Made by a program: the position numbers and the translations under genes. A model generated the notes under the pieces. The model was not told the DNA's origin. It did not search any database and saw only the letters and a program-made list of their open reading frames with translations. Shown here in pieces: positions 35,309 to 41,040 of a stretch of DNA of 47,112 nucleotides (position 1 is the stretch's first letter; each line of letters starts with the position of its first letter). Origin of the DNA: Escherichia phage e4/1c; sequence record NC_024210.1; one strand, 5' to 3'.

Positions 35309-35544
35309 TAGTTGAAACCGGACGCGCCGCTGTATGGGCGCATTGTGGAGAGGCGGGATTGCAGGATGACATCAAGATGATAGGTAAATACTTTGATATT
35401 GATGACATATCTGTAGTTTTCAATGGGAAGTTTAGTTATATGAACCAGCGGCCACGCAAGTATGTAAGAGTTCCAGCAACGCCTAGCCTCGCAATGTATC
35501 GTGAGGAAGGTAAGAAGATATTTAAGAAAGGTGCGAAGAAATGA
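35305..35544 (+). CDS. hypothetical protein (79 aa)
   Basis: in-frame part of ORF 35260..35544 starting at coupled ATG. Confidence 0.4.
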   Translation: MIVETGRAAVWAHCGEAGLQDDIKMIGKYFDIDDISVVFNGKFSYMNQRPRKYVRVPATPSLAMYREEGKKIFKKGAKK

Positions 35545-35798
35545 ATTTACCTGGTCTAGATTTTGATGAGAGTAAGTATCAGGTTGTGTTTTTTGGTGAG
35601 AAGCCTTATCGGAAGATTCCTTTCTCTGAGTGGATTCCTCCGGACTACCTCGATGTACTGGTGCAAATTGAGATTGGTAAGGCTGAGTTGATGTACTACT
35701 CACCTGGCTGCAATATGATGATGCCTAGTGAGTATTCTCCAGCAATTGCTGCGCTTGAAACTGAGTTTCTTGATTACTGGCTAAAAGAAGTTAAATAG
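35541..35798 (+). CDS. hypothetical protein (85 aa)
   Basis: ATGA overlap; stop TAG is first triplet of next palindrome. Confidence 0.45.
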   Translation: MNLPGLDFDESKYQVVFFGEKPYRKIPFSEWIPPDYLDVLVQIEIGKAELMYYSPGCNMMMPSEYSPAIAALETEFLDYWLKEVK

Positions 35799-35838
35799 CA
35801 CTTTTTGTTAAAACATATCGCCAGGGATGGCTTATAGT
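35796..35838 (+). promoter_or_regulatory. palindrome-type promoter unit
   Basis: TAGCACTTTTTGTTA, 22 bp, TATAGT, then TCATCGAAACGAGAGG. Confidence 0.5.
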
Positions 35839-35866
35839 GTGTTCATCGAAACGAGAGGCGGCTCAG

Positions 35867-35935
35867 ATGAAAACATTACTACCATTGCTGGCAGTGCCAG
35901 TAACCTTTATAATCATGTACTTCATAACCTGCTAA
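35867..35935 (+). CDS. possible 22-aa hydrophobic leader peptide (uORF)
   Basis: ATG 8 nt after conserved ACGAGAGG RBS; MKTLLPLLAVPVTFIIMYFITC; ends 14 nt before main ORF start. Confidence 0.25.
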   Translation: MKTLLPLLAVPVTFIIMYFITC

Positions 35936-35949
35936 TAGGAAAATATAGA

Positions 35950-37077
35950 ATGGCTATCGCTAAAATCACTAACGAACAACTTAAAGAAGAACTGGCAAAC
36001 GGTATGACTAACAAAGCAATCGCAGAGAAGTACGGCATGAACATTCGTAACGTAGAACTGCGCCGGAGCAAGCTGTCAAAATCTGGCGAAGGCCACGGAA
36101 ACGAAGGCATAAAGAAGCTAGTTCCGGATGGATACATGGTTAAAGGCACTTCAACCATGATTGATGCAGAAGGTAACGAGAAGATTCGTTGGGTTAAGAC
36201 TAGTGTTGATAATGAACGCCTTGAAGAGATTATTACTCAGGCACGCGAAGCATTTTGCTCAGAACTTCCTAAGGCCGAGCTAGTTAAAAATGAAAATGTT
36301 AACTTTGATGAGACATTAACTCTTTACCCTGTATTTGACATTCATATTGGTATGATGGCCCACGCTCACGAAGCTGGCGAGAACTACGACACGGCAACAG
36401 CTGAAAAATTGATGAACTCATACTTTGATTACTCAATCAGCAAGGCTCAAAATTCAGAGAAGGCGGTATTACTGATTGGCGGTGACTTCCTTCACTCTGA
36501 TGGCCTTGACGCTGTTACACCAGCAAGTAATCACGTACTTGATCAGGATAGTCGATTTGCTAAGTTGGTTTACGTTGCAATTCGATCTCTTCGAGCTACA
36601 GTAACTAAAATGCTTATGAAGCATAAAGAGGTTGAGATTCAGGTTATTGAAGGCAACCACGACCAGGCATCAATGATTTGGCTGCGCGCTGCAATGGCTG
36701 CATTCTATGACAATGAGCCACGAGTCCATGTTGATGTAAGTCCTGCAATCATGCACAAGACTCGATATGGATCAACTTTGCTTGGTTATACACATGGCCA
36801 CACCATGAAGAAAGCTGAGGGTCGACTCGCTGCCATGGCTAATGATTATCGCAAGGACTTCGGCGAGTGTGAGTTCGTTTACTGCCACTCAGGTCACTTC
36901 CATCATGCAACAGTAACCGAGTGCACGCTTGGTATTGACGAAGTTCACCCGGCATTAGCAAGCAAAGATGCATACGCAGCACGAGGCGGATGGAGAAGTT
37001 ACCGTCAGGCAGCAGTGATTGTTTACCACAAAGAATTTGGCGAGATTGGTCGATTCATTTACCGTCCGGGGATGTAA
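35950..37077 (+). CDS. HTH-domain plus calcineurin-like metallophosphoesterase
   Basis: N-terminal GMTNKAIAEKYGMNIRNVELRRSKL (HTH-like); phosphoesterase motifs VFDIHIGMMAH, GGDFLHSDG, EGNHDQ, GYTHGH, CHSGHFHH; start at ATG 35950 because ORF-track start 35827 would lie inside the promoter. Confidence 0.65.
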   Translation: MAIAKITNEQLKEELANGMTNKAIAEKYGMNIRNVELRRSKLSKSGEGHGNEGIKKLVPDGYMVKGTSTMIDAEGNEKIRWVKTSVDNERLEEIITQAREAFCSELPKAELVKNENVNFDETLTLYPVFDIHIGMMAHAHEAGENYDTATAEKLMNSYFDYSISKAQNSEKAVLLIGGDFLHSDGLDAVTPASNHVLDQDSRFAKLVYVAIRSLRATVTKMLMKHKEVEIQVIEGNHDQASMIWLRAAMAAFYDNEPRVHVDVSPAIMHKTRYGSTLLGYTHGHTMKKAEGRLAAMANDYRKDFGECEFVYCHSGHFHHATVTECTLGIDEVHPALASKDAYAARGGWRSYRQAAVIVYHKEFGEIGRFIYRPGM

Positions 37078-37081
37078 TGAA

Positions 37082-37267
37082 ATGTTAAAAGAAATACTAA
37101 GAATAATCCTTGGGGACAAGAGAGAATGCAAAAAATGCAGATTCGAGTATATAGATGACACAGACGAAGGTTCATTCTATGAGTGCAAGATTTGCGGAAA
37201 TGAAGTTTTGCTTGGTAAAAGTGGCGTTGTTAAGCAATCTAGAGTAACCGACTGCGATTATGACTAA
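37082..37267 (+). CDS. zinc-ribbon protein (61 aa)
   Basis: CKKC ... CKIC. Confidence 0.45.
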   Translation: MLKEILRIILGDKRECKKCRFEYIDDTDEGSFYECKICGNEVLLGKSGVVKQSRVTDCDYD

Positions 37268-37924: not shown

Positions 37925-37952
37925 GAAAACAGGCGGCCTTTAAGGCTGCCTT
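37925..37952 (+). terminator. rho-independent terminator
   Basis: ggcggcc-tttaa-ggctgcc plus T8. Confidence 0.65.
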
Positions 37953-38019: not shown

Positions 38020-38235
38020 ATGAAGCATTTCTATGACGCAGCCGCCTTGTCCGGTAGCGGAGTAGCTATGGGCGGCGGCTTATCTGACAATACAATCATC
38101 GGCATTATTGGCTTAATCGTAGCCGTGTGCTTTGGTATCTTTGGAGCATGGCTGCGATGGAGGGACAGTAAGGCGCTACATAAAGCACTTGAGGATGGAG
38201 ATATCCGTGAGGCAATGAGAATCAGGAGTAAGTGA
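38020..38235 (+). CDS. holin
   Basis: 71 aa; hydrophobic segment IIGIIGLIVAVCFGIFGAWL, charged C-terminus; RBS AAAGAGG; first gene of lysis cassette. Confidence 0.7.
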   Translation: MKHFYDAAALSGSGVAMGGGLSDNTIIGIIGLIVAVCFGIFGAWLRWRDSKALHKALEDGDIREAMRIRSK

Positions 38236-38717
38236 TGAGTATAAAGAATAAAGTTATTGGCGGGGCCTTAGGCTCCGCTATTGCTATAGCTGTACCATTC
38301 CTGAACAAGTATGAGGGCGTTGAGTATAGGCCATACAAAGATGTAGCTGGGGTGTGGACTATTTGCGCAGGCATTACTGGCCCTGACGTTATTCGTGGCA
38401 AGGTTTACACTCAGCGAGAGTGTGATGCACTCCTTATGAAGCACCTGTCAATTCATCGCTCCGCTGTTGATAAAGCCCTGAAGGTTGATGTTCCAGTTAG
38501 CACCAGGGCGGCGCTGTACAGTTTTTCATTTAATGTTGGGACCAATGCAATGCGCAACTCAACTGTTATCAGACTCATGAATCGCGGCGATATTCGTGGT
38601 GGATGTGAGGCGCTATCAATGTGGAATAAAATTAGCGTTGGTGGCAAGAAGGTTGTGAGCAAAGGCCTGGTTAACAGGCGAAACGCGGAGATTAGGCTAT
38701 GCGTGTCGGAATTATAA
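38235..38717 (+). CDS. SAR endolysin (GH24 lysozyme-like)
   Basis: N-terminal weakly hydrophobic GGALGSAIAIAVPF (signal-arrest-release type) followed by YEGVEYRPYKDVAGVWTICAGITG with Glu/Asp/Thr catalytic pattern of T4-type lysozymes. Confidence 0.75.
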   Translation: MSIKNKVIGGALGSAIAIAVPFLNKYEGVEYRPYKDVAGVWTICAGITGPDVIRGKVYTQRECDALLMKHLSIHRSAVDKALKVDVPVSTRAALYSFSFNVGTNAMRNSTVIRLMNRGDIRGGCEALSMWNKISVGGKKVVSKGLVNRRNAEIRLCVSEL

Positions 38718-39103
38718 TTATTGCAATCACATTGCTGACCGGTTGCTCTGTTATGTCAGCTATCTCTGATTTATTACCGAGTAAGGATGGCATTGAAGCA
38801 ACAGCGCAGGTTGGTGAGTCTAACCAGAAGACGGGCGTTGGATTATCTAGCCAGATAGATAAATCAAGTTCAGTAGAAAGCGATATGCGCAACTCAACTA
38901 ACAGGGACGTAGATTCATCAAGCCAAAAAAAGACCGCTGCTACTGGTCTCTCAGCAGGCACAATAACAGCTGAAAAGATTGAAATTCACAGCACTGAAAA
39001 CTCTGGGGTTGACTCATTGGTCTGGGGTATTCTTGCAGGGTTAGTTTCAGGCTTGCTAACTTACTTCGCTTTAAGATTTGCAGGGAACAAAAAAGGAGCC
39101 TAA
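38699..39103 (+). CDS. unimolecular spanin (u-spanin, T1 gp11-like)
   Basis: N-terminal lipobox LLTGC plus single C-terminal TMD SLVWGILAGLVSGLLTYFAL. Confidence 0.7.
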   Translation: MRVGIIIIAITLLTGCSVMSAISDLLPSKDGIEATAQVGESNQKTGVGLSSQIDKSSSVESDMRNSTNRDVDSSSQKKTAATGLSAGTITAEKIEIHSTENSGVDSLVWGILAGLVSGLLTYFALRFAGNKKGA

Positions 39104-39456: not shown

Positions 39457-41040
39457 TTACCCCAGCAGCCGTGGATTGATATATACCTTGTCACCAATCA
39501 GGCAGGTATAGTTTTTCTCATCAAGCATCGGCAGTAAGTGGTCTTTAATTTTAGCCATAACACCAGCCTGTGACTCGAAAGGTCGAACCTTACGCGCAGC
39601 TTCATAAAGTGAACGCAAACCCACAACTCCTTTACTGTTCTTGCCTTGCTTGATAAGGATATCAATTAACTTGTTCATCTCAGCGTTATCGCCAGCATGA
39701 CCAGCTGCGTTAGCTGAAGATAAGTAAGTCTTACTAAGTTCTTCAAACATCAACAAAGCCTCTTGCATGGTTTCTAGTTCAATCTCCCTGGACTTCTGCG
39801 GACTACCACCATTCTCGTTAAACCAGTTACGGATAGTATGCAGAACCGAAGCGAGGCGAATCACTTGCTTGTCCATTTTACCTAACGCGCCACGAAGCAT
39901 TGTATGTGAATACTTCCCACCATCAGCAAGGTGTGGCTCCATTTCCTGTCGAGCACGGTTAAGGTACTTCATTGCTGAGTTACTAACAGTCAACTTCACA
40001 TCTTGCTCACTCATAATTTCATGAACAAGACGGAAGTAATCAGCCTTCAACGCTCCGTCAATCGGCTCATATGTTGACTCGCCATTATCATCGACGAAAA
40101 CACGCTCACCAAGGAATGACTTTTCACGCACAAGCAAGAAACGTTCGGATACACCAATACCGCGAGCACCAGCATTCATGATTGCGACTATTGTTTCATC
40201 CTGCGCAATTACAGAAATACACCCCATAGCAATAAAGCTCATGTTGTTCTCTGCGTTCGCACGCGCGATAGATACGCTACCAGCATCCCAGGCCTTCAGA
40301 ACAAGCTCGCTGTTAGTTTTCTTCGAGCCATCACCGTAAGTCATACCAAGAAGTGAGTTAACACTTGTCGCTTCATCAGAAATCACGGAGAAGTTACCCT
40401 GGCGGTTGTTGATTCGCGCAAGACCTTCCGGTGTAGTATCAGATACCGGAAACACAATGTCGCACAGCTTTTCTAACTTCTCTTCCAACTCCTCTTTCTC
40501 TTCGAATAATCCAGCCATCTCAGATGGTGACTTCTCTTGCTTCATTTCTTTTGCCAGGGCTGACAATTTAGCCATAATCTTCTTACGGTCACGCTTTCGA
40601 ATCTCATTTAGTCGCTCGGTCTCAGAAATCATTGGTGCGAGTGCAAGTGAGTTAATTGCTGATTTACCAGTTGATGGTGGCTGACTGGTGACTACATACA
40701 GTGATGTTGGTTGTTGAGTTCCGTGATACTCAACCGTAAAGCGACCTAACATAGCTGCCGAGACGCAACCAAGGAAGTGCATATAAGCAGATGATTCAGG
40801 AAACTGAACAGAACGAGCAGTATTGCTTGATAGTTTGCCAACTACATCATAGTCGTTACCCAGCGAGATAACAGGATACTTGTCGCCAGTAGAATCAATC
40901 TCAACCGGAGCTTTCCAGAATGATGCGCTCTGGCGATAACCGTTCGCATTAATAGCAACACGTAAAGGAGTTAATCCATCCTGAGCGGCAACAGCCATTA
41001 CTTGTTCAACAGTCAATTTGTCATCATTAAAATCAAACAT
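39457..41040 (-). CDS. P-loop NTPase with shared N- and C-terminal modules (paralog of 44156..44704)
   Basis: Walker A VTSQPPSTGKSA, Walker B FSVISDEA; N-terminal 42 aa about 70 percent identical to ORF 44156..44704; start ATG 41040 (MFDF) or 41046. Confidence 0.65.
   Translation of the reverse strand: MFDFNDDKLTVEQVMAVAAQDGLTPLRVAINANGYRQSASFWKAPVEIDSTGDKYPVISLGNDYDVVGKLSSNTARSVQFPESSAYMHFLGCVSAAMLGRFTVEYHGTQQPTSLYVVTSQPPSTGKSAINSLALAPMISETERLNEIRKRDRKKIMAKLSALAKEMKQEKSPSEMAGLFEEKEELEEKLEKLCDIVFPVSDTTPEGLARINNRQGNFSVISDEATSVNSLLGMTYGDGSKKTNSELVLKAWDAGSVSIARANAENNMSFIAMGCISVIAQDETIVAIMNAGARGIGVSERFLLVREKSFLGERVFVDDNGESTYEPIDGALKADYFRLVHEIMSEQDVKLTVSNSAMKYLNRARQEMEPHLADGGKYSHTMLRGALGKMDKQVIRLASVLHTIRNWFNENGGSPQKSREIELETMQEALLMFEELSKTYLSSANAAGHAGDNAEMNKLIDILIKQGKNSKGVVGLRSLYEAARKVRPFESQAGVMAKIKDHLLPMLDEKNYTCLIGDKVYINPRLLG

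Follow-up and report, generated by a model that had tools for sequence, protein, structure and literature searches.

The two adjacent genes at this locus are probably best explained as a gene for a membrane micro-protein followed by a gene for a DNA-acting phosphodiesterase of the PHROG 704 family. The window, that is, the whole stretch of 47,112 nucleotides that was analysed, is essentially a complete genome of a Rogunavirus (Drexlerviridae, T1-like), and the two genes would have separate functions within one rightward operon of this T1-like phage. The second gene encodes a metallophosphoesterase (MPE) with an N-terminal helix-turn-helix (HTH) and invariant catalytic residues, and the short ORF before it changes between lineages in the manner of a coding sequence.

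Gene organization of the locus

The features of the locus are given in Table 1. The enzyme ORF starts with the ATG at 35950, ends with a stop codon at 37075-37077 and encodes 375 amino acids. The micro-ORF runs in a different frame from the ATG at 35867 to the TAA at 35933-35935, and 14 nt separate its end from the enzyme start. These positions, first given in the sequence-only reading, were borne out. The Shine-Dalgarno (SD) sequence of the enzyme gene directly follows the micro-ORF stop in the window (TAA TAGGA), and the arrangement in which the stop lies in the SD (TAAGGA) recurs across lineages. In many Drexlerviridae lineages the stop of the phrog_4596 gene overlaps the start of the micro-ORF as ATGA. 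The 61-aa gene downstream of the enzyme occupies the spot of the HAD-type polynucleotide phosphatase gene in Jk06.

Table 1. Features of the micro-ORF and enzyme locus (positions of the window)
Feature	Position	Strand	Basis or remark
85-aa gene, phrog_4596, function not assigned	35541..35798	+	PHROG match E 1.9e-43; conserved left neighbour of micro-ORF
In-frame upstream extension of enzyme ORF (416-aa reading)	35827..35949	+	Probably outside the translated enzyme
GAGAGG, SD-like, 8 nt before micro-ORF ATG	35853..35858	+	Read from sequence
Micro-ORF, 22 codons, MKTLLPLLAVPVTFIIMYFITC	35867..35935	+	Predicted single-pass membrane micro-protein
8-bp hairpin within micro-ORF, TTGCTGGC-AGT-GCCAGTAA	35885..35903	+	Flagged terminator-like
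AGGA, SD of enzyme gene, 9 nt before enzyme ATG	35937..35940	+	Read from sequence
HTH-metallophosphoesterase gene, 375 aa, homologue of T1 gp16 (ST16)	35950..37077	+	PHROG 704, T1 ST16 annotation
N-terminal HTH, residues 8-44, LuxR/GerE / sigma-70 region 4 type	35971..36081	+	Model helices, family profile
Beta-hairpin (residues 62-86) and helix 88-105, family-specific, ahead of catalytic domain	36133..36264	+	Alignment, model
Calcineurin-like metallophosphoesterase domain, residues 119-375	36304..37074	+	
MPE motifs I; II; III; IV; V	36334-36345; 36478-36495; 36652-36663; 36790-36801; 36892-36906	+	
61-aa gene, CxxC...CxxC (zinc-ribbon-like)	37082..37267	+	ORF list; Pfam matches weak only

The enzyme and its family

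The profile search placed the enzyme in PHROG 704, which it matches over its full length (E 4.8e-151, residues 4-375 against profile positions 2-388 of 390). This family is very large, with 2050 phage records, and homologues were found in 4745 protein clusters at E<=1e-3. A 2026 paper counted the enzyme among persistent gene modules, with 508 of 522 Drexlerviridae carrying it, and beside Drexlerviridae the family also spans Guernseyvirinae, Dhillonvirus, some Autographiviridae, and Vibrio and Campylobacter phages. The fusion of a phosphoesterase to a DNA-binding domain had been called unusual from the sequence, but it is the usual architecture of PHROG 704, where for 1955 of the 2050 records the alignment covers 80% or more of the query. 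Members such as T1 gp16/ST16, Rtp61, Jersey gp24 and HK578 gp59 share with the window gene the length, the order of HTH, hairpin and MPE domain, and the genomic position upstream of the lysis cassette. No difference of substance was seen, and the window gene is an ordinary member. The name 'DNA repair exonuclease' given to PHROG 704 is annotation only; our literature search found no functional, biochemical or genetic study of any member. One record names the gene 'sigma-70 region 4 domain-containing protein'.

All the canonical MPE motifs (DxH, GD, GNH[DE], H and GHxH) are present in the window protein, as FDIH 129-132, GGDFLH 177-182, GNHD 235-238, THGH 281-284 and GHFHH 315-319, and the protein has the beta-sandwich MPE fold. 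Loss of the motif residues in an alignment would have spoken against the assignment made from the sequence alone; in our alignment of 100 diverse homologues (28-61% identity to the query) eight residues, D130, H132, G178, D179, N236, H237, H282 and H318, are invariant and three, H316, D238 and H182, are at least 90% conserved, which is far above chance. The window protein scored 14.4 bits against PF00149, where the gathering cut-off is 21.5 (Metallophos E 0.054), and 22 of the 100 family members match PF00149 at E<=0.01. PHROG 704 is a divergent MPE branch, assigned to the superfamily on the basis of motifs and fold.

The HTH-like N-terminus proposed earlier was also recovered, by model and family profile. 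The AlphaFold2 model of the enzyme (pLDDT 92.4) has N-terminal helices at residues 8-16, 21-28 and 32-44. The window sequence alone is below the Pfam threshold for an HTH (GerE E 0.057, 13.5 bits against 23.5), and HTH Pfam families match many of the 100 aligned members, with Sigma70_r4_2 down to 1.5e-9 in some. A profile of about 60 N-terminal residues of 45 homologues matched HTH domains of the LuxR/FixJ/NarL/GerE type at E 2e-5 to 2e-4 (RhlR 2.2e-5, DesR 2.4e-5, FixJ 4.3e-5, GerE 8e-5) and CnrH region 4 at 2e-4. At the family level, the N-terminus is therefore a tri-helical HTH of the LuxR/GerE - sigma-70 region 4 type. G75 and W81 of the beta-hairpin module are nearly invariant, and the hairpin and helix are retained in the Campylobacter homologue that lacks the HTH and begins at position 78 of the PHROG profile.

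The HTH type, together with the sigma-70 label of the record mentioned above, would fit a protein that is mainly a transcription regulator, in which the HTH is functional and the phosphoesterase domain would be vestigial or serve as a sensor. We regard this as extremely unlikely. Across the family no part varies more than the HTH, which the Campylobacter members lack. The metal-binding and catalytic residues are invariant across the 100 homologues, which argues for a working enzyme.

Comparison with known phosphoesterases

Mre11/SbcD-type nucleases, named in the sequence-only reading, are indeed among the nearest structural relatives of the enzyme. Sequence identity to them is 11-18%, and H182 of the GGDFLH motif corresponds to the Mre11-like motif II histidine (GDxxH), aligning with GDLLH of the Thermotoga Mre11. 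The C-terminal capping domain of Mre11 is missing from the enzyme, which carries an N-terminal HTH and a beta-hairpin module instead. By annotation, no Rad50/SbcC ATPase partner was found in the full T1 genome or among the features of close relatives in this genome half; the large ORFs of the window correspond to tail, tape-measure, helicase and terminase genes annotated in relatives. The small subunit DP1 of archaeal PolD, a 3'-5' proofreading exonuclease, shows 11-13% identity to the enzyme. Unlike DP1, the enzyme has no DP2 polymerase partner, and its N-terminal module is a hairpin and helix rather than a full OB fold. Comparison with the bacterial Pnkp phosphatase module and the ligase-associated PdeM/MPE nuclease gave 19 bits against a cut-off of 150; their domain organisation differs from that of the enzyme, and their partner genes are missing from the window phage.

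The nearest experimentally characterised functional analogue is the MPE of cluster A mycobacteriophages (A10ZJ24 gp48, homologue Bxb1 gp47), which like our enzyme is phage-encoded and carries all five motifs. Phosphodiesterase activity was shown for A10ZJ24 gp48, which disrupts host genomic DNA (PMC12287305). Bxb1 gp47 differs from the enzyme in having 255 aa, no HTH or hairpin extension, and motif I from about residue 10. Membership in one family was rejected, with Bxb1 gp47 in phrog_221 and a hhalign probability of 11% against the enzyme-family profile.

Gene neighbours and proposed function of the enzyme

On the grounds of fold, motifs and neighbourhood, the enzyme would be a binuclear-metal (probably Mn2+) phosphodiesterase acting on DNA, either a stand-alone Mre11/DP1-like nuclease or a DNA-end-processing enzyme. 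Its LuxR/sigma-r4-type HTH would tether it to DNA, and its role would lie in the replication, recombination or end repair of phage DNA or in host DNA breakdown. In unrelated phages, the genes that recur next to that of the enzyme encode DNA-end enzymes, including a HAD polynucleotide 3'-phosphatase. In MR4 and phiEa100 the neighbourhood contains a 5'-3' exonuclease, endonuclease VII, the MPE, the HAD polynucleotide phosphatase, a dNMP-kinase-like protein and DNA ligase; in K1ind2 and Yersinia X1 it contains the MPE, the HAD phosphatase and the kinase-like protein; in Campylobacter F367 a DNA ligase is followed by the MPE. A candidate neighbour shared by Jersey and Vibrio phages was rejected: of the two proteins annotated as 'DNA-binding' in them, one is Ant-like and the other an HNH endonuclease, with no relation between them.

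The same neighbourhoods could be read in favour of a phosphoesterase that heals ends or acts on nucleotides (2',3'-cyclic phosphodiesterase, 3'-phosphatase or nucleotidase) rather than a nuclease. It would work alongside the HAD polynucleotide phosphatase, kinase-like protein and ligase, as the Pnkp MPE module of bacteria does in RNA repair. The cassette of MPE, HAD_PNKP (PF25109, E 1e-13 to 8e-19) and phrog_139 kinase-like protein occurs in K1ind2, X1, phiEa100 and MR4, and the MPE-HAD pair is present in Jk06, where JK_61 is HAD_PNKP (E 7.5e-19). The phosphatase module of bacterial Pnkp is itself an MPE (PMC3675462), and these kinases were reported as the commonest downstream genes in phages without the SH3 protein (PMC13164509). 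However, tblastn searches of the window found neither the HAD phosphatase nor the kinase-like protein, so the association is optional, and the T1 partners are located elsewhere in the genome. The HTH also suits the targeting of duplex DNA more than that of RNA ends or free nucleotides. We consider the end-healing role rather unlikely.

Less probable still, and very unlikely in our judgement, is a role against host defence, in which the phosphodiesterase would destroy cyclic (oligo)nucleotide immune signals, or in a variant act as a protein Ser/Thr phosphatase like lambda PPase. The gene is a core gene of lytic phages, which must evade host defences, but neither the HTH nor the DNA-metabolism neighbourhood suits such a role, there was no PADLOC-related match, and a literature search for an anti-defence role of such an enzyme found no report. 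DNA-directed phosphodiesterase activity is the function that we favour.

Conservation and coding potential of the micro-ORF

The micro-ORF is the more novel part of the finding. The 22-codon hydrophobic ORF with a well-placed ribosome-binding site, as first read from the sequence, is real and has its own SD, GAGAGG. In 80 of 85 distinct Drexlerviridae loci an intact homologous hydrophobic ORF of 20-31 aa lies 1-17 nt 5' of the enzyme gene, preceded by its own SD or overlapping the upstream gene as ATGA. We compared 44 unique peptides and 53 unique DNA sequences. Differences by codon position numbered 399/167/747, with third positions enriched, and pN/pS was 0.33, as against 0.86 and 2.3 in the shifted frames, in sequence pairs that are not phylogenetically independent. 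The 44 peptides align with in-frame indels and keep their hydrophobic transmembrane (TM) character despite diverged DNA. The frame is thus open, with coding-type substitutions across diverged lineages.

The Webervirus-type variant was found in 348 phage records, the Tunavirus-type in 62 and the Rogunavirus-type in 27. The micro-ORF is almost never annotated in relatives, because gene callers miss ORFs shorter than about 30 codons, and nine of ten variants are missing from a collection of 15 billion proteins. Searches of Pfam and PHROGs gave no match for the micro-protein family. Five lineages have no intact copy, so the micro-ORF is dispensable there; L106, L107 and L082 lost the ORF yet keep the enzyme gene.

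Leader peptide or micro-protein

The sequence-only reading had suggested leader-peptide or coupling control. The micro-ORF would then be a regulatory leader whose translation controls the enzyme by coupling, attenuation or unmasking of the ribosome-binding site, and the peptide itself would be functionless. The layout agrees with this: the ORF is short and immediately upstream of the gene it would regulate, its stop abuts the enzyme SD, and the spacing of 1-17 nt holds in all lineages. The intra-ORF hairpin is kept in the Rogunavirinae AHP42 and phiEB49 with one compensatory change, but it is missing from T1, Rtp and other lineages; it is Rogunavirinae-specific and probably incidental. Folds of the window region and seven other lineages revealed no conserved or significant alternative RNA structure and no sequestration of the ribosome-binding site, and the enzyme SD was always unpaired; the fold z-score was +0.35 for the window region and ranged from -2.06 to +1.98 over the eight lineages. 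A scan near the enzyme gene found no promoter, and its sole terminator-like match was this weak hairpin. A promoter annotated in AHP42 was dismissed, as it would need a 26-nt spacer.

The leader-peptide reading is disfavoured because conservation acts on the peptide, with amino acids kept across subfamilies, because no RNA structure is common to the lineages, because the enzyme gene has its own SD, and because the enzyme gene persists where the ORF is lost. We hold it to be unlikely. The pattern fits, as far as sequence comparison can tell, a conserved single-pass membrane micro-protein and not a leader peptide. The two genes may nevertheless be translationally coupled: the micro-ORF stop adjoins the enzyme SD, so that ribosomes finishing the micro-ORF may feed the enzyme start site, although the enzyme gene would not depend on such coupling.

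Translation start of the enzyme

An ATG at 35827, which went unmentioned in the sequence-only reading, lies in frame with the enzyme with no stop between, and would give a 416-aa ORF. This reading was rejected on comparative grounds. In AHP42, phiEB49 and others the extension frame is closed by a stop codon 3 nt ahead of MAIAK, where the enzyme begins. The 120 best-matching database homologues all have lengths of 374-383 aa, and the frames shifted from the micro-ORF show no purifying selection. The open 416-aa frame appears to be an accident of the lineage of the window phage and Jk06. Some records annotate the extension frame as a hypothetical protein of 39-46 aa, and JK_64 of Jk06 starts there.

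Nature and possible role of the micro-protein

In the micro-protein, a basic residue at position 2 precedes an uncharged/hydrophobic stretch of about 19 residues, and the C-terminal region carries a conserved [MIL]-Y-x-[IV]-[IV] motif. It would be a 22-aa single-pass membrane protein, of a family under purifying selection throughout Drexlerviridae. With small hydrophobic membrane peptides of bacteria and phages, such as type I toxins of the Ibs or TisB type, the micro-protein would share the length (20-30 aa), the basic N-terminus, the single hydrophobic span and the aromatic residue close to the C-terminal end. It differs in having no sequence family match and in that its gene lies inside a phage operon, directly 5' of the MPE gene; unlike for those toxins, we know of no antisense RNA or toxicity. 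A role at the host membrane or in lysis timing is a guess.

A bolder idea is that throughout Drexlerviridae the micro-protein makes up a conserved functional pair with the HTH-phosphoesterase, in which the 22-31-aa peptide localises, times or restrains a DNA-directed nuclease. The pair could act at a membrane-associated replication or DNA-entry site, or at an early step of the adjacent lysis programme. This idea is doubtful and quite unlikely to hold.

Significance

Our findings leave the current understanding of the enzyme and the micro-ORF alike in place. Few phage genes whose name is unverified are as widespread as that of the enzyme, which about 2000 sequenced phages carry; knowledge of the enzyme's substrate would shed light on the way DNA ends or host DNA are dealt with in T1-like phages. 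Hundreds of well-studied phages of therapeutic and laboratory use, T1 included, carry the conserved micro-gene unnoticed, and in some records the wrong overlapping frame is annotated in its place. If the functional pair were true, it would represent a two-component phage module of a new kind, one that length cut-offs in annotation have kept from view.

Genome context and start of the enzyme gene

Around the enzyme gene the window shares 94% identity with Escherichia phage Jk06 and 82-88% with other Rogunavirinae, and its right-hand 22 kb can be aligned along their length with AHP42, Jk06, AKS96 and C119. On this identity and alignment, the window represents a T1-like siphovirus genome (Drexlerviridae, Rogunavirus) that is essentially complete. 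The enzyme, a helix-turn-helix (HTH) metallophosphoesterase homologous to T1 gp16, is preceded by a small hydrophobic ORF (the micro-ORF), and the coordinates, frame, 22 codons and 14-nt gap to the main start described in a sequence-only reading were all reproduced.

An ATG at 35827 in frame with the enzyme would yield a 416-aa protein. This start was set aside because the same frame in AHP42, phiEB49 and others carries a stop 3 nt ahead of the MAIAK start and because the enzyme homologues are 374-383 aa long in all of the best 120 database matches; on these comparisons 35950 is taken as the real start. In the window the frame overlapping the micro-ORF is joined to the enzyme because this stop is lost. 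In Jk06 the annotated JK_64 begins at the upstream ATG, and in AKS96 (gp43) and Phleasolo (Phleasolo_48) the upstream frame is annotated as a separate hypothetical protein of 39-46 aa. These annotations look wrong; no coding-type conservation is seen in the frames offset from that of the micro-ORF, this one included. The Jk06 annotation moreover splits the enzyme into two CDSs that overlap, JK_64 and JK_63, each called 'DNA repair exonuclease'; a frameshift or a sequencing error is the probable cause, and the fragment families phrog_20703 and phrog_20762 appear to stem from this split.

Features of the window and of related phage loci (L-numbers)
Feature	Location	Strand	Remarks
Frame overlapping micro-ORF	35827-35949		in frame with enzyme
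GAGAGG	8 nt before micro-ORF		Shine-Dalgarno-like, read from sequence
Micro-ORF	35867-35935	+	22 codons, MKTLLPLLAVPVTFIIMYFITC; other frame than enzyme; stop 14 nt before enzyme start
Micro-ORF hairpin	35885-35903		8 bp
AGGA	9 nt before enzyme ORF		Shine-Dalgarno-like, read from sequence
Enzyme ORF	35950-37077	+	ATG at 35950, 375 aa
Three-helix HTH	residues 8-44		AlphaFold2 model
Linker	between HTH and hairpin module		low confidence, AlphaFold2 model
Beta-hairpin and helix	residues 62-105		conserved; G75 and W81 nearly invariant
Catalytic domain	residues 119-375		AlphaFold2 model
Zinc-ribbon-like ORF	37082-37267		61 aa
Terminator-like hairpin	37931-37951		9 bp, 6 GC, then T run
Enzyme beside lysis genes	window 38020-39103; L178 (HK578); L181 (Yersinia X1); L183 (RcPeripeteia); L185 (Ssp-JY40)		holin, endolysin
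Micro-ORF peptide, T1	T1 RefSeq 40740-40811		MKLYFAVVLTPLISFSVMYFIIM; no CDS annotated there
Micro-ORF peptide, Rtp-like			MKSLILVALVPLFSFTILYFIVMN
Micro-ORF peptide, Webervirus			MRYIAILFTAILFTIAIINYAIQLG
Split enzyme CDS, Jk06	L001 2826-4075		JK_64 and JK_63
F367 homologue	L184 2498-3451		317 aa, no HTH
HNH insertions	L002 4152-4643; L029 42028-42510; L082 upstream of 3001; L005 4087-4713		in L082 in place of micro-ORF
PHROG 704 enzyme-HAD phosphatase cassette	L186 3628-4667; L181 2721-3779; L180 2669-3744; L179 2662-3812; L001 4078-4551

A conserved micro-ORF upstream of the enzyme gene

Eighty-five Drexlerviridae loci differing in sequence around the enzyme start were gathered from IMG/VR and GenBank, and in 80 of them an ORF of 20-31 hydrophobic codons, opening with ATG, is intact and stops 1-17 nt short of the enzyme start. 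Its 44 distinct peptides can be aligned with indels that keep the frame, and they have in common a basic residue close to the N-terminus and a stretch of about 19 uncharged residues that often has a proline at its centre; a [MIL]-Y-x-[IV]-[IV]-M motif lies near the C-terminus. Differences at codon positions 1, 2 and 3 numbered 399, 167 and 747 over 153 same-length, phylogenetically non-independent pairs, and pN/pS, likewise from non-independent pairs, was 0.33 in the micro-ORF frame versus 0.86 and 2.3 in two shifted frames. The direction of these values clearly points to coding-type selection despite the non-independence. The five other loci comprise two AAS23-like loci with no micro-ORF, one with an HNH insertion, one with a nonsense codon and one without the ATG; all five keep the enzyme gene, which has its own Shine-Dalgarno sequence where inspected.

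The micro-ORF matched no family in Pfam or PHROG, and nine of ten variants were not found in a collection of 15 billion proteins, the one present being a 29-aa form that is recorded for Shigella phage ESh4 as a "hypothetical protein". By tblastn the Webervirus variant was found in 348 records, nearly all without an annotated feature beneath the match, and the Tunavirus and Rogunavirus variants in 62 and 27 records, respectively. We conclude that the micro-ORF is a conserved, overlooked gene for a predicted single-pass membrane micro-protein.

The sequence-only reading had proposed leader-peptide or coupling control. A leader is disfavoured relative to a genuine micro-protein gene: folding gave z +0.35 for the window region and -2.06 to +1.98 across eight lineages, no RNA structure was shared among those eight, and the enzyme Shine-Dalgarno was unpaired in every fold. 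In many lineages the micro-ORF ATG and the stop of the phrog_4596 gene before it overlap as ATGA, and the micro-ORF stop lies inside the enzyme Shine-Dalgarno (TAAGGA); from this geometry translational coupling to the enzyme is plausible but not needed. AHP42 and phiEB49-type phages retain the 8-bp hairpin within the micro-ORF, with a single compensatory change from C-G to A-T (peptide L>M and V>L); outside Rogunavirinae the hairpin is absent.

Family and architecture of the enzyme

The window protein alone was sub-threshold in Pfam (Metallophos, E 0.054; GerE, E 0.057), and its match to PHROG 704, "DNA repair exonuclease", spanned the full length (E 4.8e-151). The enzyme was found by tblastn in 2050 phage records, 1955 of which cover at least 80% of the query, including Drexlerviridae, Jersey/K1-type Guernseyvirinae, Dhillonvirus, Erwinia and Pseudomonas Autographiviridae, and Vibrio, Rhodobacter and Campylobacter phages. 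An exhaustive HMMER scan of clusters at 50% identity gave 4745 at E<=1e-3 and 1003 at E<=1e-30, mostly of 370-420 aa. Within this very common, annotated phage family, whose name rests on annotation, the enzyme is an ordinary member. Across 100 aligned sequences (28-61% identity to the query), D130, H132, G178, D179, N236, H237, H282 and H318 are invariant and H316, D238 and H182 at least 90% conserved, so that by alignment the enzyme carries the complete five-motif metallophosphoesterase signature together with the GD-x-x-H histidine typical of Mre11.

The AlphaFold2 model (pLDDT 92.4, pTM 0.81) has four parts. An N-terminal profile of 45 homologues matches LuxR/FixJ/NarL/GerE effector domains (E 2e-5 to 2e-4) and sigma-factor region 4 (2e-4), and the 100 aligned members scanned singly gave matches to HTH_1 (24), HTH_8 (20), HTH_50 (12) and Sigma70_r4_2 (10; best E 1.5e-9). 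The fusion to a DNA-binding domain, earlier called unusual, is on these matches the norm for the PHROG 704 family. The HTH is also its most variable part, and many HMMER matches start near query residues 40-60. The homologue of Campylobacter phage F367 lacks it entirely, beginning at PHROG profile position 78 with the beta-hairpin module, which shows the predicted HTH to be an optional add-on to a hairpin and metallophosphoesterase core.

Gene neighbourhood and likely activity

Pseudomonas phage MR4 and Erwinia phage phiEa100 share the gene order 5'-3' exonuclease, endonuclease VII, PHROG 704 enzyme, HAD-type polynucleotide 3'-phosphatase (stand-alone, Pfam HAD_PNKP), dNMP-kinase-like P-loop protein (phrog_139) and DNA ligase. 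The order in K1ind2 and Yersinia phage X1 is enzyme, HAD phosphatase and kinase-like protein; Jk06 has the enzyme followed by the HAD phosphatase, and F367 a DNA ligase followed by the enzyme. The enzyme-phosphatase-kinase-like cassette recurs in unrelated phage families, at times with DNA ligase after it, and its phosphatase is annotated 'polynucleotide kinase' although it has no kinase domain. Neither partner gene was found in the window genome, and in T1 both sit elsewhere in the genome, so the link is recurrent but optional.

Directly 3' of the enzyme gene, in the place of the HAD phosphatase of Jk06, the window has an ORF with two CxxC pairs and weak family matches only. A strong hairpin of intrinsic-terminator type just ahead of the holin gene probably ends the operon containing the enzyme gene. 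The enzyme gene adjoins lysis genes in several unrelated siphovirus groups, as in Drexlerviridae, and HNH homing-endonuclease genes are repeatedly inserted beside it in different phages.

A literature search found no experimental work on the PHROG 704 family, and a 2026 comparative paper cites the enzyme by annotation name only. The search gave one characterised phage metallophosphoesterase, mycobacteriophage A10ZJ24 gp48, which has phosphodiesterase activity and disrupts the genomic DNA of its host (PMC12287305). Its homologue Bxb1 gp47, aligned with gp48 in that paper, belongs to phrog_221 and reached an hhalign probability of 11% against the family profile; kinship was rejected, and gp48 is an analogue, not a relative. 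Mre11 shares the GD-x-x-H histidine, but the enzyme is not a member of that family: it has no capping domain, and the annotations of T1 and close relatives show no Rad50/SbcC gene. The gene neighbourhood is more informative on function than the annotation name or gp48. Based on the HTH, the nuclease-like fold neighbours, the Mre11-like motif II histidine, the DNA-end-processing neighbours and the invariant catalytic residues, the best-supported reading is a stand-alone, DNA-tethered, metal-dependent phosphodiesterase, i.e. a predicted nuclease or end-processing enzyme.

The novelty is modest; the enzyme belongs to a very common known phage family. What is new is confined to the unannotated family of micro-proteins and the strict placement of its gene immediately ahead of that of the enzyme in Drexlerviridae.
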